A stretch of 16,616 bases of DNA from a virus, in the UHGV virus genome UHGV-0224311, one strand, 5' to 3'. How positions within the stretch are numbered: the first letter of the stretch is position 1; the number at the start of each line of letters is the position of its first letter. This document shows, piece by piece, positions 1,524 through 12,839 of the stretch. The notes beneath the pieces were generated by a model, which searched no databases, was not told the DNA's origin, and worked only from the letters and a program-made list of their open reading frames with translations. A program made the translations under genes and the position numbers.

Positions 1524-2009
1524 ATGAATAACTTTGTTGAAATTACCTCAAGAATTGGTCGCATGTACCAAGATTTTCTTATAAGTGGAAAGGGGTCTGG
1601 CGACATCATAGAGGAAATTGACAAGCTAAGTGCAGAGCTGAGAAGGAATGGGTGTGTTAATTCTATCTTTTTTGAAACGTTGCTAAAGCAAGGCTTCATG
1701 TTTGACATGATTAATTACAACAAAGTCGCACCCAGTGCTTCGCAAAAATCATATGTGTACGTTCTGCATGCTGAAGATAGTGGGCTAACAAAAATAGGGT
1801 TTAGTCGCAGGGTTAATAAACGGATTTCAGAGATATCTCGCATGAGTGGTGGGAAGCTAAATCTAATTGCAAAGATTCCGGCCGATAGAGAGCTTGAAAC
1901 CAAATTGCACCAAAAATATTACAACTATAGGTCGCACGGGGAGTGGTTTAGTCTCAATCGTTGTCATTTGAAAGAGCTAAAAGAAATGCCTGGTAACGAA
2001 CTGAAATAA
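1524..2009 (+). CDS. Accessory (moron) protein of 161 aa: N-terminal region of unknown function plus C-terminal T5orf172 / GIY-YIG-like predicted nuclease domain
   Basis: ATG at 1524 with AAAGG 8 nt upstream. The C-terminal half carries YVYVLHAEDSGLTKIGFSRRVNKRISEISR ... KLHQKYYNYRSHGEWFSL, which fits the T5orf172 (GIY-YIG-like) pattern as I recall it (YVYVL...KIG...R...E...H...GEWF). The gene is visibly AT-rich with frequent AGA/AGG/ATA codons, unlike its neighbours. Confidence 0.7.
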   Translation: MNNFVEITSRIGRMYQDFLISGKGSGDIIEEIDKLSAELRRNGCVNSIFFETLLKQGFMFDMINYNKVAPSASQKSYVYVLHAEDSGLTKIGFSRRVNKRISEISRMSGGKLNLIAKIPADRELETKLHQKYYNYRSHGEWFSLNRCHLKELKEMPGNELK

Positions 2010-4512: not shown

Positions 4513-5013
4513 TTACGGCTTGAGAAATTCAGAGGCAGCGGAATTCAGAGCGTTAATAAATGCTACCTTATGCTTGTATGCATCTAATGCTGTAGCGAAT
4601 CCGCTTTTTGTGTATTTCTTGCCTTCTACCACAAATTGCCACATGTAGTTATTTGTGTCCTTGCGATAGGAAACTCCTTTGTATCCAGTTGAATTGTCGC
4701 AATCCATGCCACGGTTTAGTCCGTTCAACTGCTTATTGGCATCTCTAAGATTACAGATGCGGTTATCAGCACGGTTTCCGTTTATGTGATCTACTGCTTC
4801 GGGCCAGTAACCATAGTAGTGCGCAAAACAAATTCTGTGCACGTAGTACAGTTTTTTACCAAGCCTTACATCAAGGTATCCGTTTCCATGCTGGCACCCA
4901 ACGGGCTTGCCGTTAAGGTCTGTCCTCCTTGTGCGATTAGCCGCGTACAAAATTCCGGTTTCAGCATCGTATGTGAAATTTTTCCTTATATCTTCTATAG
5001 ATGGATGGCTCAC
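4513..5013 (-). CDS. Free-standing HNH homing endonuclease with C-terminal AP2-type DNA-binding domain
   Basis: Minus-strand ORF of 166 aa with a GTG start at 5013 preceded by AGGAG. It carries an HNH motif (HRICFAHYYGYWPEAVDHINGNRADNRICNLR) and an AP2-like segment (GYKGVSYRKDTNNYMWQFVVEGKKYTKSGFATALDAYKHKV). The gene is AT-rich and antisense to the operon, placed between terL and portal. Confidence 0.85.
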   Translation of the reverse strand: MSHPSIEDIRKNFTYDAETGILYAANRTRRTDLNGKPVGCQHGNGYLDVRLGKKLYYVHRICFAHYYGYWPEAVDHINGNRADNRICNLRDANKQLNGLNRGMDCDNSTGYKGVSYRKDTNNYMWQFVVEGKKYTKSGFATALDAYKHKVAFINALNSAASEFLKP

Positions 5014-7245: not shown

Positions 7246-8157
7246 ATGGACCAAACCACCGACATTCAGGCTTCTGAAGAATTAACCCTGCCCGGCAATC
7301 ATGCAGCGGCATCTGCTGATGGCTTAGTTGTCGATAATGCCAACGACAGCGCAGGTCAGGAAGAAGGCTTTGAGATTGTCCTGAAAGACGATGAGAAACC
7401 AAAACAAGACCCGGCAACTAATGCTGAATTTGCCCGTCGCCGCATCGAACGCAAACGCCAGCGTGAGCTTGAGCAGCAGATGGAGGCGGTTAAGCGTGGA
7501 GAGTTGCCGGAGCACCTGCGGGTGAACCCTGAGTTACCGAAACAACCAGACCCTAACGATTATCTTTCCGAAGATGCACTGGCTAAGTACGACTATGACC
7601 AGAGCCGCGCACTGGCTGCCTTCCAGCAGGCAAACAGTGAATGGCAGATCAAGGCTATGGACGCACGAAGCCAGGCTGTCGCCGAGCAGGGGCGCAAAAC
7701 TCAGGAGTTCACCCAGCAATCAGCGCAATACGTCGAGGCAGCCCGTAAGCACTACGACGCAGCGGAAAAGCTCAATATCCCTGACTATCAGGAGAAAGAG
7801 GACGCATTCATGCAACTTGTGCCGCCAGCAGTCGGTGCCGACATCATGCGCCTCTTCCCGGAGAAATCCGCTGCTCTCATGTATCACCTTGGTGCTAATC
7901 CTGAGAAAACACGCCAGTTGCTGGCGATGGACGGGCAATCCGCGCTGATTGAACTCACTCGACTGTCAGAACGTTTAACTCTCAAGCCTCGAGCAAAGCC
8001 TGTTTCAGAAGCCCCGTTACCTGATGAACCCATTCAGGGACATGCTGTTGCTGCAAATATCTCTGCGATTGAAAAGCAGATGGAGGCGGCAGCAAACAAA
8101 GGGGATGTAGAGACGTACCGCAAGCTCAAGGCGCAACTGAATAAAGGAATTCGATAA
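7246..8157 (+). CDS. 8: Scaffolding protein, P22 gp8-type
   Basis: The 303-aa product is recognised as gp8-like ([50 protein letters not shown] ... [18 protein letters not shown]). RBS GAGAG upstream; its stop overlaps the coat start (TAATG). Confidence 0.93.
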
Positions 8158-9452
8158 TGGCATTAAATGAAGGTCAACTGGTCACGTATGCTCTGGATGA
8201 AATCATCGAAACCGTCCAGAACCTGACGCCAATGGCGTCCAAAGTGACAAAATACACCCCTCCGGCAGAATCCATGCAGCGTTCAAGCAACACCGTGTGG
8301 ATGCCTGTTGAGCAGGAAGCGCCAACTCAGACTGGCTGGGATTTAACTGGCAACGCAACCGGGATTCTGGAGCTGTCCGTGAAATGCAACATGGGCGATC
8401 CGGATAACGATTTCTTCGAGCTTCGTGCAGATGACCTGCGTGATGAGCGTTCTTACCGTCGCCGCATCCAGGCATCCGCCAAAAAACTGGCGAATAACAT
8501 TGAGTCAGCAATTGCCAAACAGGCAACTGAAATGGGCTCGCTTGTTGTTCACGATACCCGCGCAATTGGTCCATCTACTGGCCTGTCTGGCTGGGATTTT
8601 GTGTCTGATGCAGAGCGCCTGATGTTCTCCCGTGAGCTAAACCGCGATATGGGCATCAGTTACTTCCTGAACCCTGACGATTACCGCAAAGCAGGCCGCA
8701 ACCTGGTAGATGGTGACATCTTTGGGCGCGTTCCTGAAGAAGCGTATCGCAACGGTACTATTCAGCGTCAGATTGCTGGCTTTGATGAAATTCTTCGCTC
8801 ACCGAAACTTCCTGCAGTTACCAAGTCAACCGCTACTGGTGTAACTGTGACTGGAGCGCAGAAGTTTAAGCCGCAGGCATACACCCTTGATACCGATGGT
8901 AACAAGGAGAACGTCGACAACCGTGTTGCAACGGTGACCGTATCCTCCACCACCGGGTTTAAGCGCGGCGACAAAATCAGCTTCACTGGTGTGAAATTCC
9001 TGTCTCAGATGGCGAAGAACGTGCTGACTGATGATGCAACTTTCTCAATCACCCGTGTGATCGATAGTACTCACATCGAAATCACGCCGAAGCCGATTGC
9101 GCTGGATGACGCGTCACTGACAAAAGAAGAGAAGGCTTACGCTAACGTAAACACCTCTCTTGCTAATACCACTCCGGTAAACGTTCTGAACGTGGCAACA
9201 ACCACCGCTAACGTGTTCTGGGCTGATGACTCAATCCGTCTGCTGTCTCAGCCGATCCCGGTAACCCATGAACTGTTTGCTGGCATGAAAACGTCTTCCT
9301 TCAGCATTCCTGGCATTGGTGTTAACGGCATCTTCGCAACGCAGGGTGATATCAACACTCTGTCTGGTAAGTGCCGTATTGCTGTGTGGTATTCAGCATG
9401 TGCTGTACGACCAGAGGCAATTGGTGTTGGTCTGCCTAACCAGACTGCGTGA
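8157..9452 (+). CDS. 5: Major capsid (coat) protein, P22 gp5-type
   Basis: The 431-aa product is recognised as P22 coat-like ([20 protein letters not shown]...; NPDDYRKAG; [29 protein letters not shown]). Confidence 0.95.
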
Positions 9453-9458
9453 TAACCA

Positions 9459-9482
9459 GAGGGAGCTTCTGCTCCCTTTTCT
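9459..9482 (+). terminator. Probable rho-independent (partial) terminator just after the coat gene
   Basis: Stem gggagc / gctccc with loop ttct, followed by ttttct, beginning 7 nt after the coat stop codon. Confidence 0.5.
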
Positions 9483-9495
9483 ATTGGAGATACCA

Positions 9496-10095
9496 ATGAG
9501 CGTAATGATTTTTCAGGCTGGCGGAGATACCAAAATCTGGGGACGCAAACTGAAAACGAAAACCGTTGATCCTGATGATGTAGCTGTGCACTTAGCAAAT
9601 GGCTGGTATAAGCACCCTGACGATGTTCCTGATGATCCTCTTGTTGGTGATCAAATTGGGAGTGTTGGCGGAGGTGAAACTTCCCCAGTTGATATGGGCG
9701 AAGTGTCCGACGGTTATCACACTTTTAACGAGCTTTACGCTCACCGAGTGCGCCTCTTCTCATCGCTGATGCATGCTTACGCTGAGCTTTCGTGGTGGTC
9801 TCGCAAACACAGTGACGGTGAAGAGTGGGATGGCTGGATCATTGCTGGTATCACCACTCCAGAAGGCGAAATCACTTATCACCTACCTGTTGAAGAAATC
9901 GAGTTCCTTCCTGAAGGTACTGAGCTTGAGTTCGGGAAAGAGTGGGATGGTCATGAAGCAAATGATGTTCTTGGACGACTCCTGAGTTTGCGTCCGGCTA
10001 TTGCAGAGCCAGAGCCAGAGCCAGAAGAAAAACAGCGTAAAAAGCCTGGTCGAAAACCTAAGGCGGCAGCAGATGAACCTGACAACGAAGGGTGA
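9496..10095 (+). CDS. Hypothetical acidic protein of 199 aa inserted between coat and gp4; function unknown
   Basis: ATG at 9496 preceded by GGAGA (9486-9490). The listed ORF start at 9316 would overlap the coat gene and its terminator, so it is rejected. The product is Asp/Glu-rich with a Trp-rich core ([32 protein letters not shown]) and a C-terminal [20 protein letters not shown] tail. Its 3' end overlaps the gp4 start by 23 nt. Confidence 0.65.
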
Positions 10096-10573
10096 TTTAG
10101 TCCTTGCGGCATTACGTAAGCTCGGTGTGGCATCAAATGCCACGTTAACAGATGTCGAACCGCAGTCTATGGAAGACGGCGTCAACGACCTTGAAATGAT
10201 GATGGCTGAATGGCTTGGCGGTGATGCGTCACCTGGTATCAACGTTGGCTACATTTTTGCTGATGCAGATGTTGCTCCGGATCCGGGCGATGAGCACGGC
10301 TTATCAAATAACGCTATCAATGCCGTCATTTTCAACCTTGCCTGCCGCATTGCACCGGATTATGCGCTGGAAGCGCCTGCAAAACTTATAACCACTGCCA
10401 GATACGGGAAAGAGCGACTCGTCAAACTGTCTGCAATGGACAGAGCAAAAGCCGCTAAATGTAAGTCCGGTTATCCAAACCGTATGCCTGTTGGTAGCGG
10501 TAACCAGTTGGCGAAGTGGAACGGTTGGAATTACTTCCACCGAAAGGAACCTTGCGATAACGGGAGCGAATAA
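10073..10573 (+). CDS. 4: Head completion / tail accessory protein, P22 gp4-type
   Basis: Starting at the ATG at 10073 gives a 166-aa product beginning [33 protein letters not shown], recognised as gp4-like. The listed ORF start at 10001 is an upstream in-frame extension. Confidence 0.88.
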
Positions 10574-11991
10574 TGCCGATTCAGCAACTTCCGCTTATGA
10601 AAGGTGTCGGAAAAGACTTTCGAAACGCCGACTATATCGACTATCTGCCAGTGAATATGCTGGCTACGCCCAAAGAAATCCTGAACAGCAGCGGATATCT
10701 TCGCTCATTCCCGGGCATTGCCAAACGTTCTGATGTGAATGGTGTATCGCGCGGTGTCGAGTACAACATGGCGCAGAATGCTGTTTATCGCGTTTGCGGT
10801 GGCAAGTTGTATAAGGGCGAAAGCGAGGTCGGTGATGTTGCCGGAAGTGGTCGCGTATCAATGGCGCATGGTCGAACATCTCAGGCGGTAGGCGTTAATG
10901 GTCAACTGGTCGAGTATCGCTATGATGGCACGGTTAAAACAGTCTCAAACTGGCCTACAGACAGCGGATTCACTCAGTATGAGTTAGGTTCAGTCCGCGA
11001 CATTACACGCTTACGTGGGCGTTATGCGTGGTCAAAAGACGGCACGGATTCATGGTTTATCACTGACCTTGAAGACGAATCGCATCCTGACCGTTACAGC
11101 GCACAATATCGCGCAGAATCGCAGCCGGACGGTATCCTCGGCATCGGAACATGGCGAGACTTCATCGTCTGCTTTGGTTCATCGACGATTGAATATTTTT
11201 CCCTGACAGGTGCAACCACTGTTGGTGCCGCTTTGTATGTCGCACAGCCATCGCTGATGGTGCAGAAAGGCATTGCTGGAACCTACTGCAAAACGCAGTT
11301 CGCTGATTCGTATGCGTTCATCAGCAATCCGGCAACAGGTGCGCCGTCTGTGTATATCATCGGCTCTGGTCAGGTATCACCAATCGCCAGCGCGAGCATT
11401 GAGAAAATACTACGCTCCTACACTGCTGATGAACTGGCTGATGGTGTGATGGAATCGCTGCGGTTTGATGCTCATGAGTTGCTGATTATCCATCTTTCGC
11501 GTCACGTTCTCGTGTACGACGCATCTTCAAGCGCCAATGGTCCGCAATGGTGTGTGCTGAAAACAGGCCTGTATGACGATGTGTACCGCGCTATCGACTT
11601 CATTTACGAAGGCAATCAGATAACGTGCGGCGATAAGCTGGAATCGGTGACCGGGAAATTGCAGTACGACATCAGCAGCCAGTACGACAAGCAACAGGAA
11701 CACCTGCTGTTTACTCCGTTGTTCAAAGCGGATAACGCCAGAGTGTTCGACCTTGAGGTGGAATCATCCACTGGCGTAGCTCAGTACGCCGACCGCCTGT
11801 TCCTCTCTGCAACCACTGACGGCATCAATTACGGGCGTGAGCAGATGATTGAGCAGAATGAACCGTTCGTTTATGACAAACGTGTTTTGTGGAAGCGAGT
11901 CGGGCGCATCAGGAAAAATGTCGGCTTCAAATTGCGCGTTATCACGAAGTCACCTGTCACTCTGTCTGGCGCTCAGATAAGGATTGAGTAA
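10573..11991 (+). CDS. 10: Tail accessory / packaged-DNA stabilisation protein, P22 gp10-type
   Basis: The 472-aa product is recognised as gp10-like ([49 protein letters not shown]...). Its start is coupled to the gp4 stop (TAATG). Confidence 0.93.
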
Positions 11992-12839
11992 TGGCGGATT
12001 CGAATCTCAATGTGCCGGTAATCATCCAGGCTACGCGGCTCGATACATCAGTTCTTCCACGCAATATCTTCTCGCAGTCGTATCTGCTTTACGTTATCGC
12101 ACAGGGCACTGATGTTGGTAACGTGGCTAACAAGGCCAACGAGGCCGGACAGGGCGCTTATGACGCACAAGTCAGGAACGATGAGCAGGATGTGATTCTC
12201 GCTGACCATGAGCAGCGAATTTCTGCTGCGGAAGCAACGCTTGTTAATCATGAGGAGCGAATCAGCCAGGCAGAATCAACTCTTCAGGACCATGAAACGC
12301 GAATCGCTCAGAATGAAAGCGATATTGCGTCGCTTGATACCAGAGTTCAGTCGCTGGAGTCGCAGGTTTCAGACCATGAAACGCGCATTGATGCTCTGGA
12401 GCATGCAACCACACGCAAGAAGTCAGAGGTTGTTTACTCTGGCGTATCAGTAACCATCCCGACAGCGCCGACCAACCTTGTTAGCCTGCTGAAAACGCTC
12501 ACGCCGTCATCCGGGACGTTGGCACCATTCTTCGACACTGTTAACAACAAGATGGTTGTGTTCAACGAGAACAAAACCTTGTTCTTCAAGCTGTCGATTG
12601 TCGGGACGTGGCCCAGCGGAACCGCCAACAGGTCAATGCAGCTAACATTTTCCGGTTCTGTTCCTGACACACTGGTAAGCAGTCGCAACTCGGCGACAAT
12701 AACCGACAACATCCTGTTAGCTACGTTCTTCAGCGTGGATAAAGACGGCTTTCTTGCCACAAATGGCAGTACGTTAACCATTCAGTCAAATGGGGCGGCG
12801 TTTACTGCCACAACCATCAAAATCATTGCGGAGCAGTGA
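11991..12839 (+). CDS. 26: Tail needle (cell-puncturing plug), P22 gp26-type, with extended C-terminal knob-like domain
   Basis: The N-terminus [41 protein letters not shown] is recognised as gp26-like. A central 14-residue-period coiled coil follows. The ~140-residue C-terminal region makes the protein longer (282 aa) than the P22 needle as I recall it. Confidence 0.88.
12204..12413 (+). repeat. Five imperfect tandem 42-bp repeats (14-codon units) encoding the needle coiled coil
   Basis: The motif gaccatga[gr]... recurs at about 12204, 12246, 12288 and 12372, encoding [14 protein letters not shown] / [14 protein letters not shown] / [14 protein letters not shown] / [14 protein letters not shown] / [11 protein letters not shown]. 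Confidence 0.5.

Follow-up and report, generated by a model that had tools for sequence, protein, structure and literature searches.

A WDGH-bearing long form of the protein encoded between coat and gp4 in a P22-like prophage of Escherichia coli: a possible late counter-defence module

The virus genome UHGV-0224311, whose full length of 16,616 nucleotides (nt) is called the window here, comes from an Escherichia coli prophage of the P22-like kind (Lederbergvirus), of which it forms the late region. Between its genes for the coat protein and for the head-tail adaptor gp4 lies an open reading frame (ORF) of 199 codons (9496-10095, plus strand, as are all features below unless stated). Its sequence identifies it as the long form of a slot protein, found at this position in the P22-like phages examined that have an N-terminal domain of the P22 orf69 type. 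What sets the long form apart is an autonomous domain of about 100 residues, the WDGH domain (Pfam PF25311), which recurs in phages of very different hosts and is in several cases fused to sponges of bacterial immune signals. Taken as a whole, the observations are best explained, with a confidence that stays somewhat short of even, by a long form of the slot protein with coupled expression that carries a late anti-defence WDGH module. The gene itself is not new, as it is already catalogued both under its WDGH domain and as orf186 of phages ST64T and L.

A conserved slot between coat and gp4

The gene directly upstream encodes coat (8157-9452; Pfam P22_CoatProtein, E 3e-165), and the first 23 nt of the gp4 homologue downstream (10073-10573; Pfam P22_Tail-4, E 4e-58) are shared with the ORF. 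An initial annotation, made from the letters of the window, had taken P22 to pass from coat almost directly to gene 4, and the ORF was accordingly described as an insertion. The curated P22 record reads otherwise: a stem-loop is followed by orf69, a protein of 69 residues (MKIAIYKPGGSIMVWGVMAQMKVIDSSELPEYVKDGWLDHPSKLLPVEADDVKPRKGRKPKAVSDADKD) whose gene shares 17 nt with gene 4. Every P22-like phage examined in fact has a slot ORF of this kind, and the insertion is not novel to P22 biology. In BLASTP the window protein aligns with P22 orf69 over residues 1-41 (E 2e-8) and again within the basic tail (residues 176-193, E 0.01). A profile search with the N-terminal domain (N-domain) returned 402 matches, the 120 listed being proteins of 44-82 residues, from Enterobacterales where named. 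Since all listed matches fall into this range of lengths, the short form can be regarded as the common one and the WDGH-bearing form as its variant. Complete short forms that were inspected run from the N-domain through an (EP)n or acidic spacer to the motif KKPG[RP]KPKA and an acidic end that overlaps the start of gp4.

The same slot in ST64T and phage L is occupied by orf186, behind the same hairpin, with the same overlap with gene 4 and with the same order of N-domain, linker, WDGH domain and basic tail. Residues 1-165 of the window protein are 61-62% identical to it, and related proteins of Salmonella P22-like phages are ST104 ORF54 and SE1 orf56. The two proteins differ towards their ends: orf186 is without the EP repeat and terminates in ...KKPGPKPKAESDADKD, whereas the window protein is an allele of the E. 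coli lineage with an (EP)n spacer and another tail end. The genome paper on phage L gives the function of orf186 as unknown (PMC8022706), and it was the only paper found in a literature search for orf69 or orf186 together with P22.

P22 orf69 and the forms of 72-88 residues, such as those of IME10 and APC_JM3.2, have a homologous N-domain and the same type of basic patch, acidic end, hairpin, Shine-Dalgarno sequence (SD) and gp4 overlap, but are entirely without the WDGH domain. The 88-residue form of APC_JM3.2 and IME10 consists of an N-domain, (EP)9 and a tail identical to the window protein's. Gene 6 of Sf6 (61 residues) shows the same hairpin and overlap and a KRGRKA tail; position and tail are all it has in common with the slot protein, and homology of its N-terminal part to the orf69 N-domain could not be demonstrated (hhalign 0.6%). 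No Pfam family was found for the N-domain, P22 orf69 or Sf6 gp6, and the 88-residue form of APC_JM3.2 gave only low-complexity matches to its (EP)n repeat, far below threshold.

Slot ORFs that look disrupted at the sequence level also occur among the relatives. In phage Louie an annotated ORF of 45 residues (L002 2415-2552) overlaps the end of coat and an N-domain reading frame follows it, and one homologue, P0135, is a 61-residue truncation of the window-type N-domain with an unrelated C-terminus.

Anatomy of the 199-residue protein

In the program-made list of ORFs the frame runs back to a TTG at 9316 within coat. ATG 9496 is nevertheless the supported start, because it stands at proper spacing from an SD (GGAG, 9486-9489, 6 nt 5' of the ATG) and every homologue has the N-terminus MSVM... 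or MGVM... that begins there. The resulting protein has a pI of 4.65, a net charge of about -20 and seven tryptophans, five of them in the core domain. Its C-terminus extends 10 residues past the string quoted in the initial annotation.

AlphaFold2 (AF2), given an alignment of 95 sequences for the whole protein, predicts two folded parts joined and followed by disordered ones. The orf69-type N-domain (residues 1-44; 9496-9627) is modelled as a beta-hairpin and a helix (strands 3-14 and 17-24, helix 26-34) at a predicted local distance difference test score (pLDDT) of about 83; G9, G36, W37 and P41 are invariant, and residues 1-44 match phrog_1175 (E 2e-14). An acidic linker (residues 45-65; 9628-9690), which differs in length and sequence among relatives, falls below pLDDT 50 at residues 48-63. 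The WDGH domain (residues 66-165; 9691-9990) is predicted as a compact alpha/beta fold with pLDDT 95-97 in the full protein and 94.9 when modelled alone, and the tail is disordered from residue 170 on.

The protein had at first been assigned to no known family. The profile search with hidden Markov models (HMMs) that was then suggested now gives a clear match to PF25311 at residues 68-165, covering the model completely (positions 1-97 of 97; 134.8 bits versus a cut-off of 27, E 1.4e-39). This is the sole Pfam match at E <= 1; the whole protein matches phrog_3769 (E 1e-100). The eponymous motif is present as W150-D151-G152-H153. Among the 95 relatives D72, H75, Y81, H83, R84 and S102 are invariant, and E79, H105, D107, Y128, H129, D151, H153, D157 and R161 are at least 90% conserved.

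Behind the WDGH domain, the (EP)n spacer (10004-10025) is encoded by a 6-nt microsatellite (CAGAGC x 3.7 by TRF). Alleles that are more than 96% identical (loci L008-L042) carry 1 to 5 EP units, giving ORFs of 195-203 residues; the number rises to about 7 in more distant relatives and to 9 in APC_JM3.2. The basic patch (residues 179-191; 10030-10068) reads KKPG[RP]KPKA and is kept in long and short forms alike, with at least four Lys or Arg in nine residues in 47 of 50 long and 112 of 120 short relatives. It had been compared to an AT-hook. The core of that motif, RGRP, appears in only 2 of the 50 long and none of the 120 short relatives, and the window itself reads K-P-G-R-K-P-K. The conserved element is thus the Lys-rich one, and the protein is not of the AT-hook type.

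Selection on the gene and its tail

The database holds 1,381 homologues of the 199-residue protein. The full gene is found in 42 of the 5,426 complete genomes of E. coli, and the RefSeq name given to it there is "WDGH domain-containing protein". A codon analysis across eight diverged relatives yielded ratios of nonsynonymous to synonymous substitution rates (dN/dS) of 0.19 for the N-domain, 0.41 for the first linker, 0.06 for the WDGH core, 0.27 for the EP spacer and 0.17 for the basic patch, the last with a dS of 1.03. The ORF is a genuine late-operon gene, far beyond chance, as had been claimed for a separately initiated gene in the gap, and the N-domain and basic patch are under purifying selection at the protein level. 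The last seven codons, which overlap gp4, behave differently: dN/dS is 2.4 in the ORF frame at a dS of 0.19, so the constraint there belongs to the gp4 frame.

The basic patch also contains the SD of gp4 (AAGGCGG, 10060-10066, inside its K-P-K-A codons), and part of its conservation is for this reason of the nucleotide level; the rest is not. The third positions of its Pro and Gly codons are free to vary, P22 and Sf6 use CGN-encoded Arg in place of Lys, and dS is close to 1, which argues that selection acts on the positive charge of the protein. The same CGN codons and dS led us to reject the idea that the Lys-rich tail is a mere by-product of an A-rich leader for gp4.

A search for a sigma-70-like promoter between coat and the ORF found none, and a moron expressed from the prophage was rejected on this ground. 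In two Salmonella enterica prophages (L089 and L090, 6001-6560) the orf186 homologue is split into pieces of 120 and 81 residues that both match WDGH, which looks like a frameshift or a pseudogene; at least some lysogens can therefore do without the gene.

Expression signals and the junction with gp4

Right after the coat stop codon stands a stem-loop with a U-run, t-coat (AGGGAGC-UUCU-GCUCCCU; 9460-9485). Its hairpin (9460-9477) has a 7-bp GC-rich stem and is followed by UUUUCUAUU; in a context of 56 nt it folds at -20.5 kcal/mol (z = -3.4). An equivalent GC-rich hairpin with U-run occurs in 27 of 28 distinct sequences upstream of the slot, including those of P22, Sf6, APC_JM3.2 and the Salmonella types, and the annotations of P22, Sf6 and L list it as a putative terminator or stem-loop. 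The stem changes in sequence among the variants (GGGGC/GCCCC versus GGGAGC/GCUCCC) and the tetraloop is usually UUCG; in the one exception, L078, both stem and U-run are disrupted. A GGAG or GAGG SD stands at the same position in all 28 variants.

The other end of the gene is equally well kept. AAGGCGG is conserved at the DNA level in every distinct tail sequence but one, P22 and Sf6 included (the exception, L067, reads AAGGTAG), and in most of them the longer CCTAAGGCGG is kept around it. The overlap of the ORF with gp4, 23 nt in the window, measures 17-26 nt in all 23 distinct junction variants, drawn from 80 fetched loci together with P22, APC_JM3.2 and Sf6; the one exception is L038, whose start was probably set too far upstream by the automatic call. 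The features read from the window at the outset, namely a terminator-like hairpin, an own ribosome-binding site, the 199-residue frame, its 23-nt overlap and an acidic Trp-rich core, are all there, and the arrangement of the 3' end for translational coupling is borne out by the junction variants.

From this geometry one may picture how the region would work. The hairpin and U-run after coat would lower read-through transcripts or stabilise them, and translation of the ORF would begin from its own GGAG. Ribosomes that end the ORF would cross the SD and ATG of gp4, which would couple gp4 translation to that of the ORF.

Could the ORF be a leader only, which brings ribosomes to the gp4 start and whose protein product is irrelevant? 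Every variant examined has the end of the ORF overlapping with the SD and ATG of gp4, and the slot tolerates very different bodies, from 61 residues in Sf6 and 69 in P22 to 199 in the window. Such a leader would, however, not account for the strong protein-level purifying selection in the N-domain, WDGH domain and basic patch, at saturated synonymous sites, nor for the fact that WDGH is a widespread autonomous domain. We consider this explanation very improbable indeed.

An exchangeable cassette within the structural module

Comparison with the nearest E. coli phages places the limits of the exchanged part. In blastn against APC_JM3.2 and Louie the window is 97-98% identical up to position 9490 and again from 10004, with no match between; the swapped cassette (9491-10003) comprises N-domain, linker and WDGH domain. 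These phages with nearly identical flanks have the short form only. Judged from the alignments, the gene body has been exchanged as a recombination cassette, with its left boundary at the SD behind the post-coat hairpin and its right boundary at the (EP)n microsatellite. Within this body WDGH stands, as an autonomous domain of 100 residues, between the N-domain and the spacer of an orf69-type protein.

These observations bear directly on the proposal of the initial annotation that the protein decorates the capsid, resides inside it or is injected. In this explanation the protein would be packaged with the DNA, possibly also ejected with it, and its basic tail would contact DNA or the capsid interior. 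The position of the gene within the structural module, between coat and gp4, speaks for a virion role, as does the purifying selection on the basic patch. Against it, the capsid does not need the WDGH body, because phages with 97-98% identical coat and gp4 lack it, and WDGH spans unrelated types of virion, often outside structural modules, for instance in an early region of phage Pavtok and in accessory arrays. We also know of no orf69- or orf186-type protein assigned in the high-resolution virion structures and gel analyses of P22, Sf6 and L, which we count against this explanation.

Nor is orf186 named in the text of the phage L paper, where the virion components known from P22 are listed along with Dec, scaffold and small terminase. 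On the other side, the paper reports 22 phage proteins in virion preparations, nine of which its text names only in part. With WDGH optional next to coat and gp4 genes of 97% identity and present in non-structural contexts, the 199-residue protein is probably not a capsid component, and a virion-associated role appears improbable. Of the accessory functions first considered, the injected one shares this low standing. The placement of the gene outside the core set of P22 assembly genes holds, and the suggestion of a factor that matters on defence-carrying hosts agrees with the tentative counter-defence reading set out below.

Other parts of the late region are mosaic as well. The tail needle gene (11991-12839) encodes an Sf6-type knob domain (PF16532, E 5e-116), and coat, gp4 and gp20 match Pfam families named after P22, so that the virion module is itself a mosaic. 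A gene on the minus strand (4513-5013), placed between those for the large terminase and the portal, encodes an HNH_3 endonuclease of 166 residues (Pfam E 2e-13) that looks like an insertion of the homing-endonuclease type in the late operon; in phages Louie and Dewey an HNH gene sits at another junction, that of scaffold and coat. A further accessory insertion in the late region is a gene for a 161-residue protein with T5orf172 / MUG113 (GIY-YIG-like) domains (1524-2009, plus strand), between the Rz spanin gene and the genes for DUF2560 and the small terminase.

The remaining order is that of a P22-like late region: lysozyme, Rz, small and large terminase, the minus-strand HNH gene, portal, scaffold and coat, then the 199-residue ORF, gp4, gp10, needle, a DUF2824 (gp14-like) gene, an ORF of 230 residues and gp20. 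The 230-residue ORF stands at the position of P22 gene 7 and was placed by position, outside the family scan.

A helper of assembly?

A different kind of explanation looks at the slot rather than at the WDGH domain. The protein might be a chaperone of assembly or DNA packaging like gpFI of phage lambda, a non-essential helper outside the virion, to which WDGH would be an add-on. The likeness is one of position and architecture: gpFI is a small non-core protein with a flexible charged linker, encoded after the major capsid gene and before a head-completion gene, so that the lambda order E - Fi - Fii corresponds to coat - slot ORF - gp4. Both proteins would combine a small folded domain, a disordered charged linker and a second interacting element. 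That all P22-like phages examined have a slot ORF points to a role linked with the assembly operon. To our knowledge P22 genetics has never found an essential gene in the slot, which is what one would expect of a helper.

There is, however, no sequence similarity to gpFI, and homology was rejected at an hhalign probability of 0.4%; gpFI also has neither a WDGH-like domain nor a basic C-terminal patch. The taxonomic range of the N-domain is narrow. A helper role furthermore leaves unexplained why a domain should be inserted that is elsewhere fused to sponges and shared with phages of Listeria, Bacillus and Streptococcus. We regard this explanation as distinctly unlikely, if less so than a place in the virion.

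The WDGH family across phages

An exhaustive HMMER search (E <= 1e-3) collected 4,483 clusters of WDGH sequences at 50% identity, and about a third of the best 150 of these have lengths of 109-150 residues. The domain is found in 196 phage records, among them P100-like Listeria phages and phages of Bacillus, Streptococcus, Lactococcus, Staphylococcus, Klebsiella and Erwinia, and its carriers include myo-, sipho- and podoviruses, with Gram-negative as well as Gram-positive hosts. Even in Gram-positive phages the identity to the WDGH domain of the window is 45-50%. The window domain is a regular member of PF25311 (phrog_3769, 3392, 21846 and 16023): it matches over its full length with a high score and all invariant residues are present. 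The other members differ in their setting, being mostly stand-alone or joined to other partners.

The genomic contexts are equally varied. WDGH stands between the portal and a minor head protein in a pneumococcal phage, within a 405-residue early-region protein in Erwinia phage Pavtok, and in arrays of small ORFs upstream of the terminase. Among stand-alone genes, one lies 3.3 kb from a gene with an Acb2/Tad1 hairpin and another in a block with three orphan DNA methyltransferases.

Searches for better-known relatives gave little. A PDB sequence search with the protein and with the profile of 95 sequences found no match, Foldseek against BFVD returned only other WDGH proteins, NCBIfam had no match to the window protein, the PADLOC models contained no family at E <= 1, and all PHROG matches are labelled "unknown function".

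Fusions to immune-signal sponges

More telling are the fusions. The WDGH partners annotated by Pfam are Tad2-like (PF11195), PF21825, the Lar restriction-alleviation domain (two representatives) and DUF551 (one). PF21825 is named crAss001_48 in an older copy of Pfam and "Sequestin" in newer annotation. Tad2 and Sequestin are verified sponges for the signals of Thoeris TIR proteins, and Tal et al. found Sequestin, a sponge of 3'cADPR, through its frequent fusion to Tad2 and Acb4; they also described that fused sponges work independently within one polypeptide (bioRxiv 10.1101/2025.07.12.664507). That paper does not mention WDGH.

One protein, P0102, has the architecture Tad2-WDGH-Sequestin. In P0108, P0077 and P0082 three different domains X precede WDGH-Sequestin, and P0380 is arranged as X-WDGH-Tad2. 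The comparison of P0102 with P0371, both from Serratia prophages, is particularly clear: P0371 is a Tad2-Sequestin protein of 160 residues, near-identical to the flanks of P0102 (99% in the best BLASTP segment), and the WDGH block of P0102, which ends in LLSLDGVS, is placed exactly in the linker between the two sponges. The two-sponge protein hence exists with and without the WDGH block. A gene of the P0102 type (locus L088, 6001-6798) has the lysis cassette on one side and the terminase and portal genes on the other, in a phage whose portal is of the P22 type. P0102 and the window protein follow the same design, a WDGH domain placed in a linker.

Like WDGH, the Tad2 and Sequestin domains are short, modular and restricted to phages and prophages, but neither resembles it in sequence or fold. 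When the WDGH alignment was compared with the Tad2-Sequestin protein by hhalign, the match lay only in columns contributed by fused members and not in WDGH. Two further candidates were considered for the identity of the domain: Lockin was rejected, being beta-rich, hexameric and absent from INPHARED, and a relationship to Acb5, which occurs mainly in actinophages, is not evident.

Two of the sponge fusions share a small N-terminal domain before WDGH (P0108 residues 1-85, P0380 residues 1-92) with the motif KKPV.IEA.QF...GDWII.GVK.E.YPCKPDIF..TY and no Pfam match at E <= 0.01. It could be another candidate for an anti-defence module; the idea that it is Acb4-like was dropped, being without Pfam support.

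Counter-defence or another function

What might WDGH do? The domain is phage-restricted, mostly short and stand-alone, highly conserved and repeatedly fused to Tad2 and Sequestin. For these reasons we tentatively read it, by analogy with its partners and at clearly less than even confidence, as a phage counter-defence module that would bind or cleave an immune signal of nucleotide type, or a metabolite akin to one, as used by Thoeris or by the cyclic-oligonucleotide-based antiphage signalling system (CBASS). From its place in the operon, the WDGH protein would be made together with the capsid proteins. Co-expression with coat would have a rationale, because one Thoeris system, of staphylococci, is reported in a Nature Microbiology paper to sense phage capsids (PMC12578639). 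As to its mode of action, the invariant set of His, Asp, Arg and Tyr, together with the very low dN/dS, resembles an active site more than the pocket of a sponge.

Several points weigh against this reading. Among the 120 closest homologues 4 are sponge fusions, and among 65 long representatives 3, a small minority of the family; most fusion partners are unannotated, and the window protein itself contains no PF11195 or PF21825 domain (Pfam, E <= 1). The WDGH domain is strongly acidic, with a net charge of -15, whereas the pockets of known sponges are positively charged, and late expression is unusual for them. Anti-defence proteins of several domains can also join modules with unrelated targets, so the target of WDGH need not be a nucleotide signal. 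Finally, a literature search for WDGH or PF25311 turned up no relevant paper and no experiment on any WDGH protein.

The same conservation could serve a phage enzyme or binding module outside immunity, with a function that concerns nucleotides, nucleic acids or host takeover; the conserved set would then make up a site for catalysis or metal binding, and the Lys-rich tail would anchor the protein on DNA or RNA. Such a function would fit with some 15 D, H, R, Y, S and E residues that are invariant or nearly so within 100 amino acids, with a dN/dS of 0.06 and with the identity of 45-50% kept across phages of different phyla. The tail, which we liken to nucleic-acid-binding peptides of the H1/SPKK type, would fit as well, and Tal et al. 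point out that positively charged pockets often have non-immune nucleotide roles (bioRxiv 10.1101/2025.07.12.664507). The partners tell against it: three of the four annotated ones (Tad2, Sequestin, Lar and DUF551) have a described function, in each case anti-defence, and no metabolic partner is among them. We hold this alternative to be unlikely, if still worth weighing.

Going one step beyond the counter-defence reading, WDGH may be a new and very large family of counter-defence proteins, plausibly enzymatic, that acts on nucleotide immune signals or their precursors and spreads as a cassette into the flexible linkers of small phage proteins. We put this forward as a rather doubtful generalisation.

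Implications for P22-like phages

The gap between coat and gp4 in P22-like phages emerges as a conserved slot rather than an empty junction, with a hairpin, with a small protein whose N-domain and basic tail are under selection, and with a likely coupling to gp4. If the generalisation above were true, a WDGH cassette would have entered two kinds of protein: in one lineage the linker that joins Tad2 to Sequestin, in the P22-like phages the slot protein of the orf69 type. In these phages WDGH would be co-expressed with coat, and one TIR system is reported to sense a capsid protein of this kind. WDGH shows the very feature that uncovered Sequestin, fusion to known sponges of immune signals. A large phage family thereby becomes testable with existing assays in tractable phages such as P22, L and the P22-like phages of E. 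coli.

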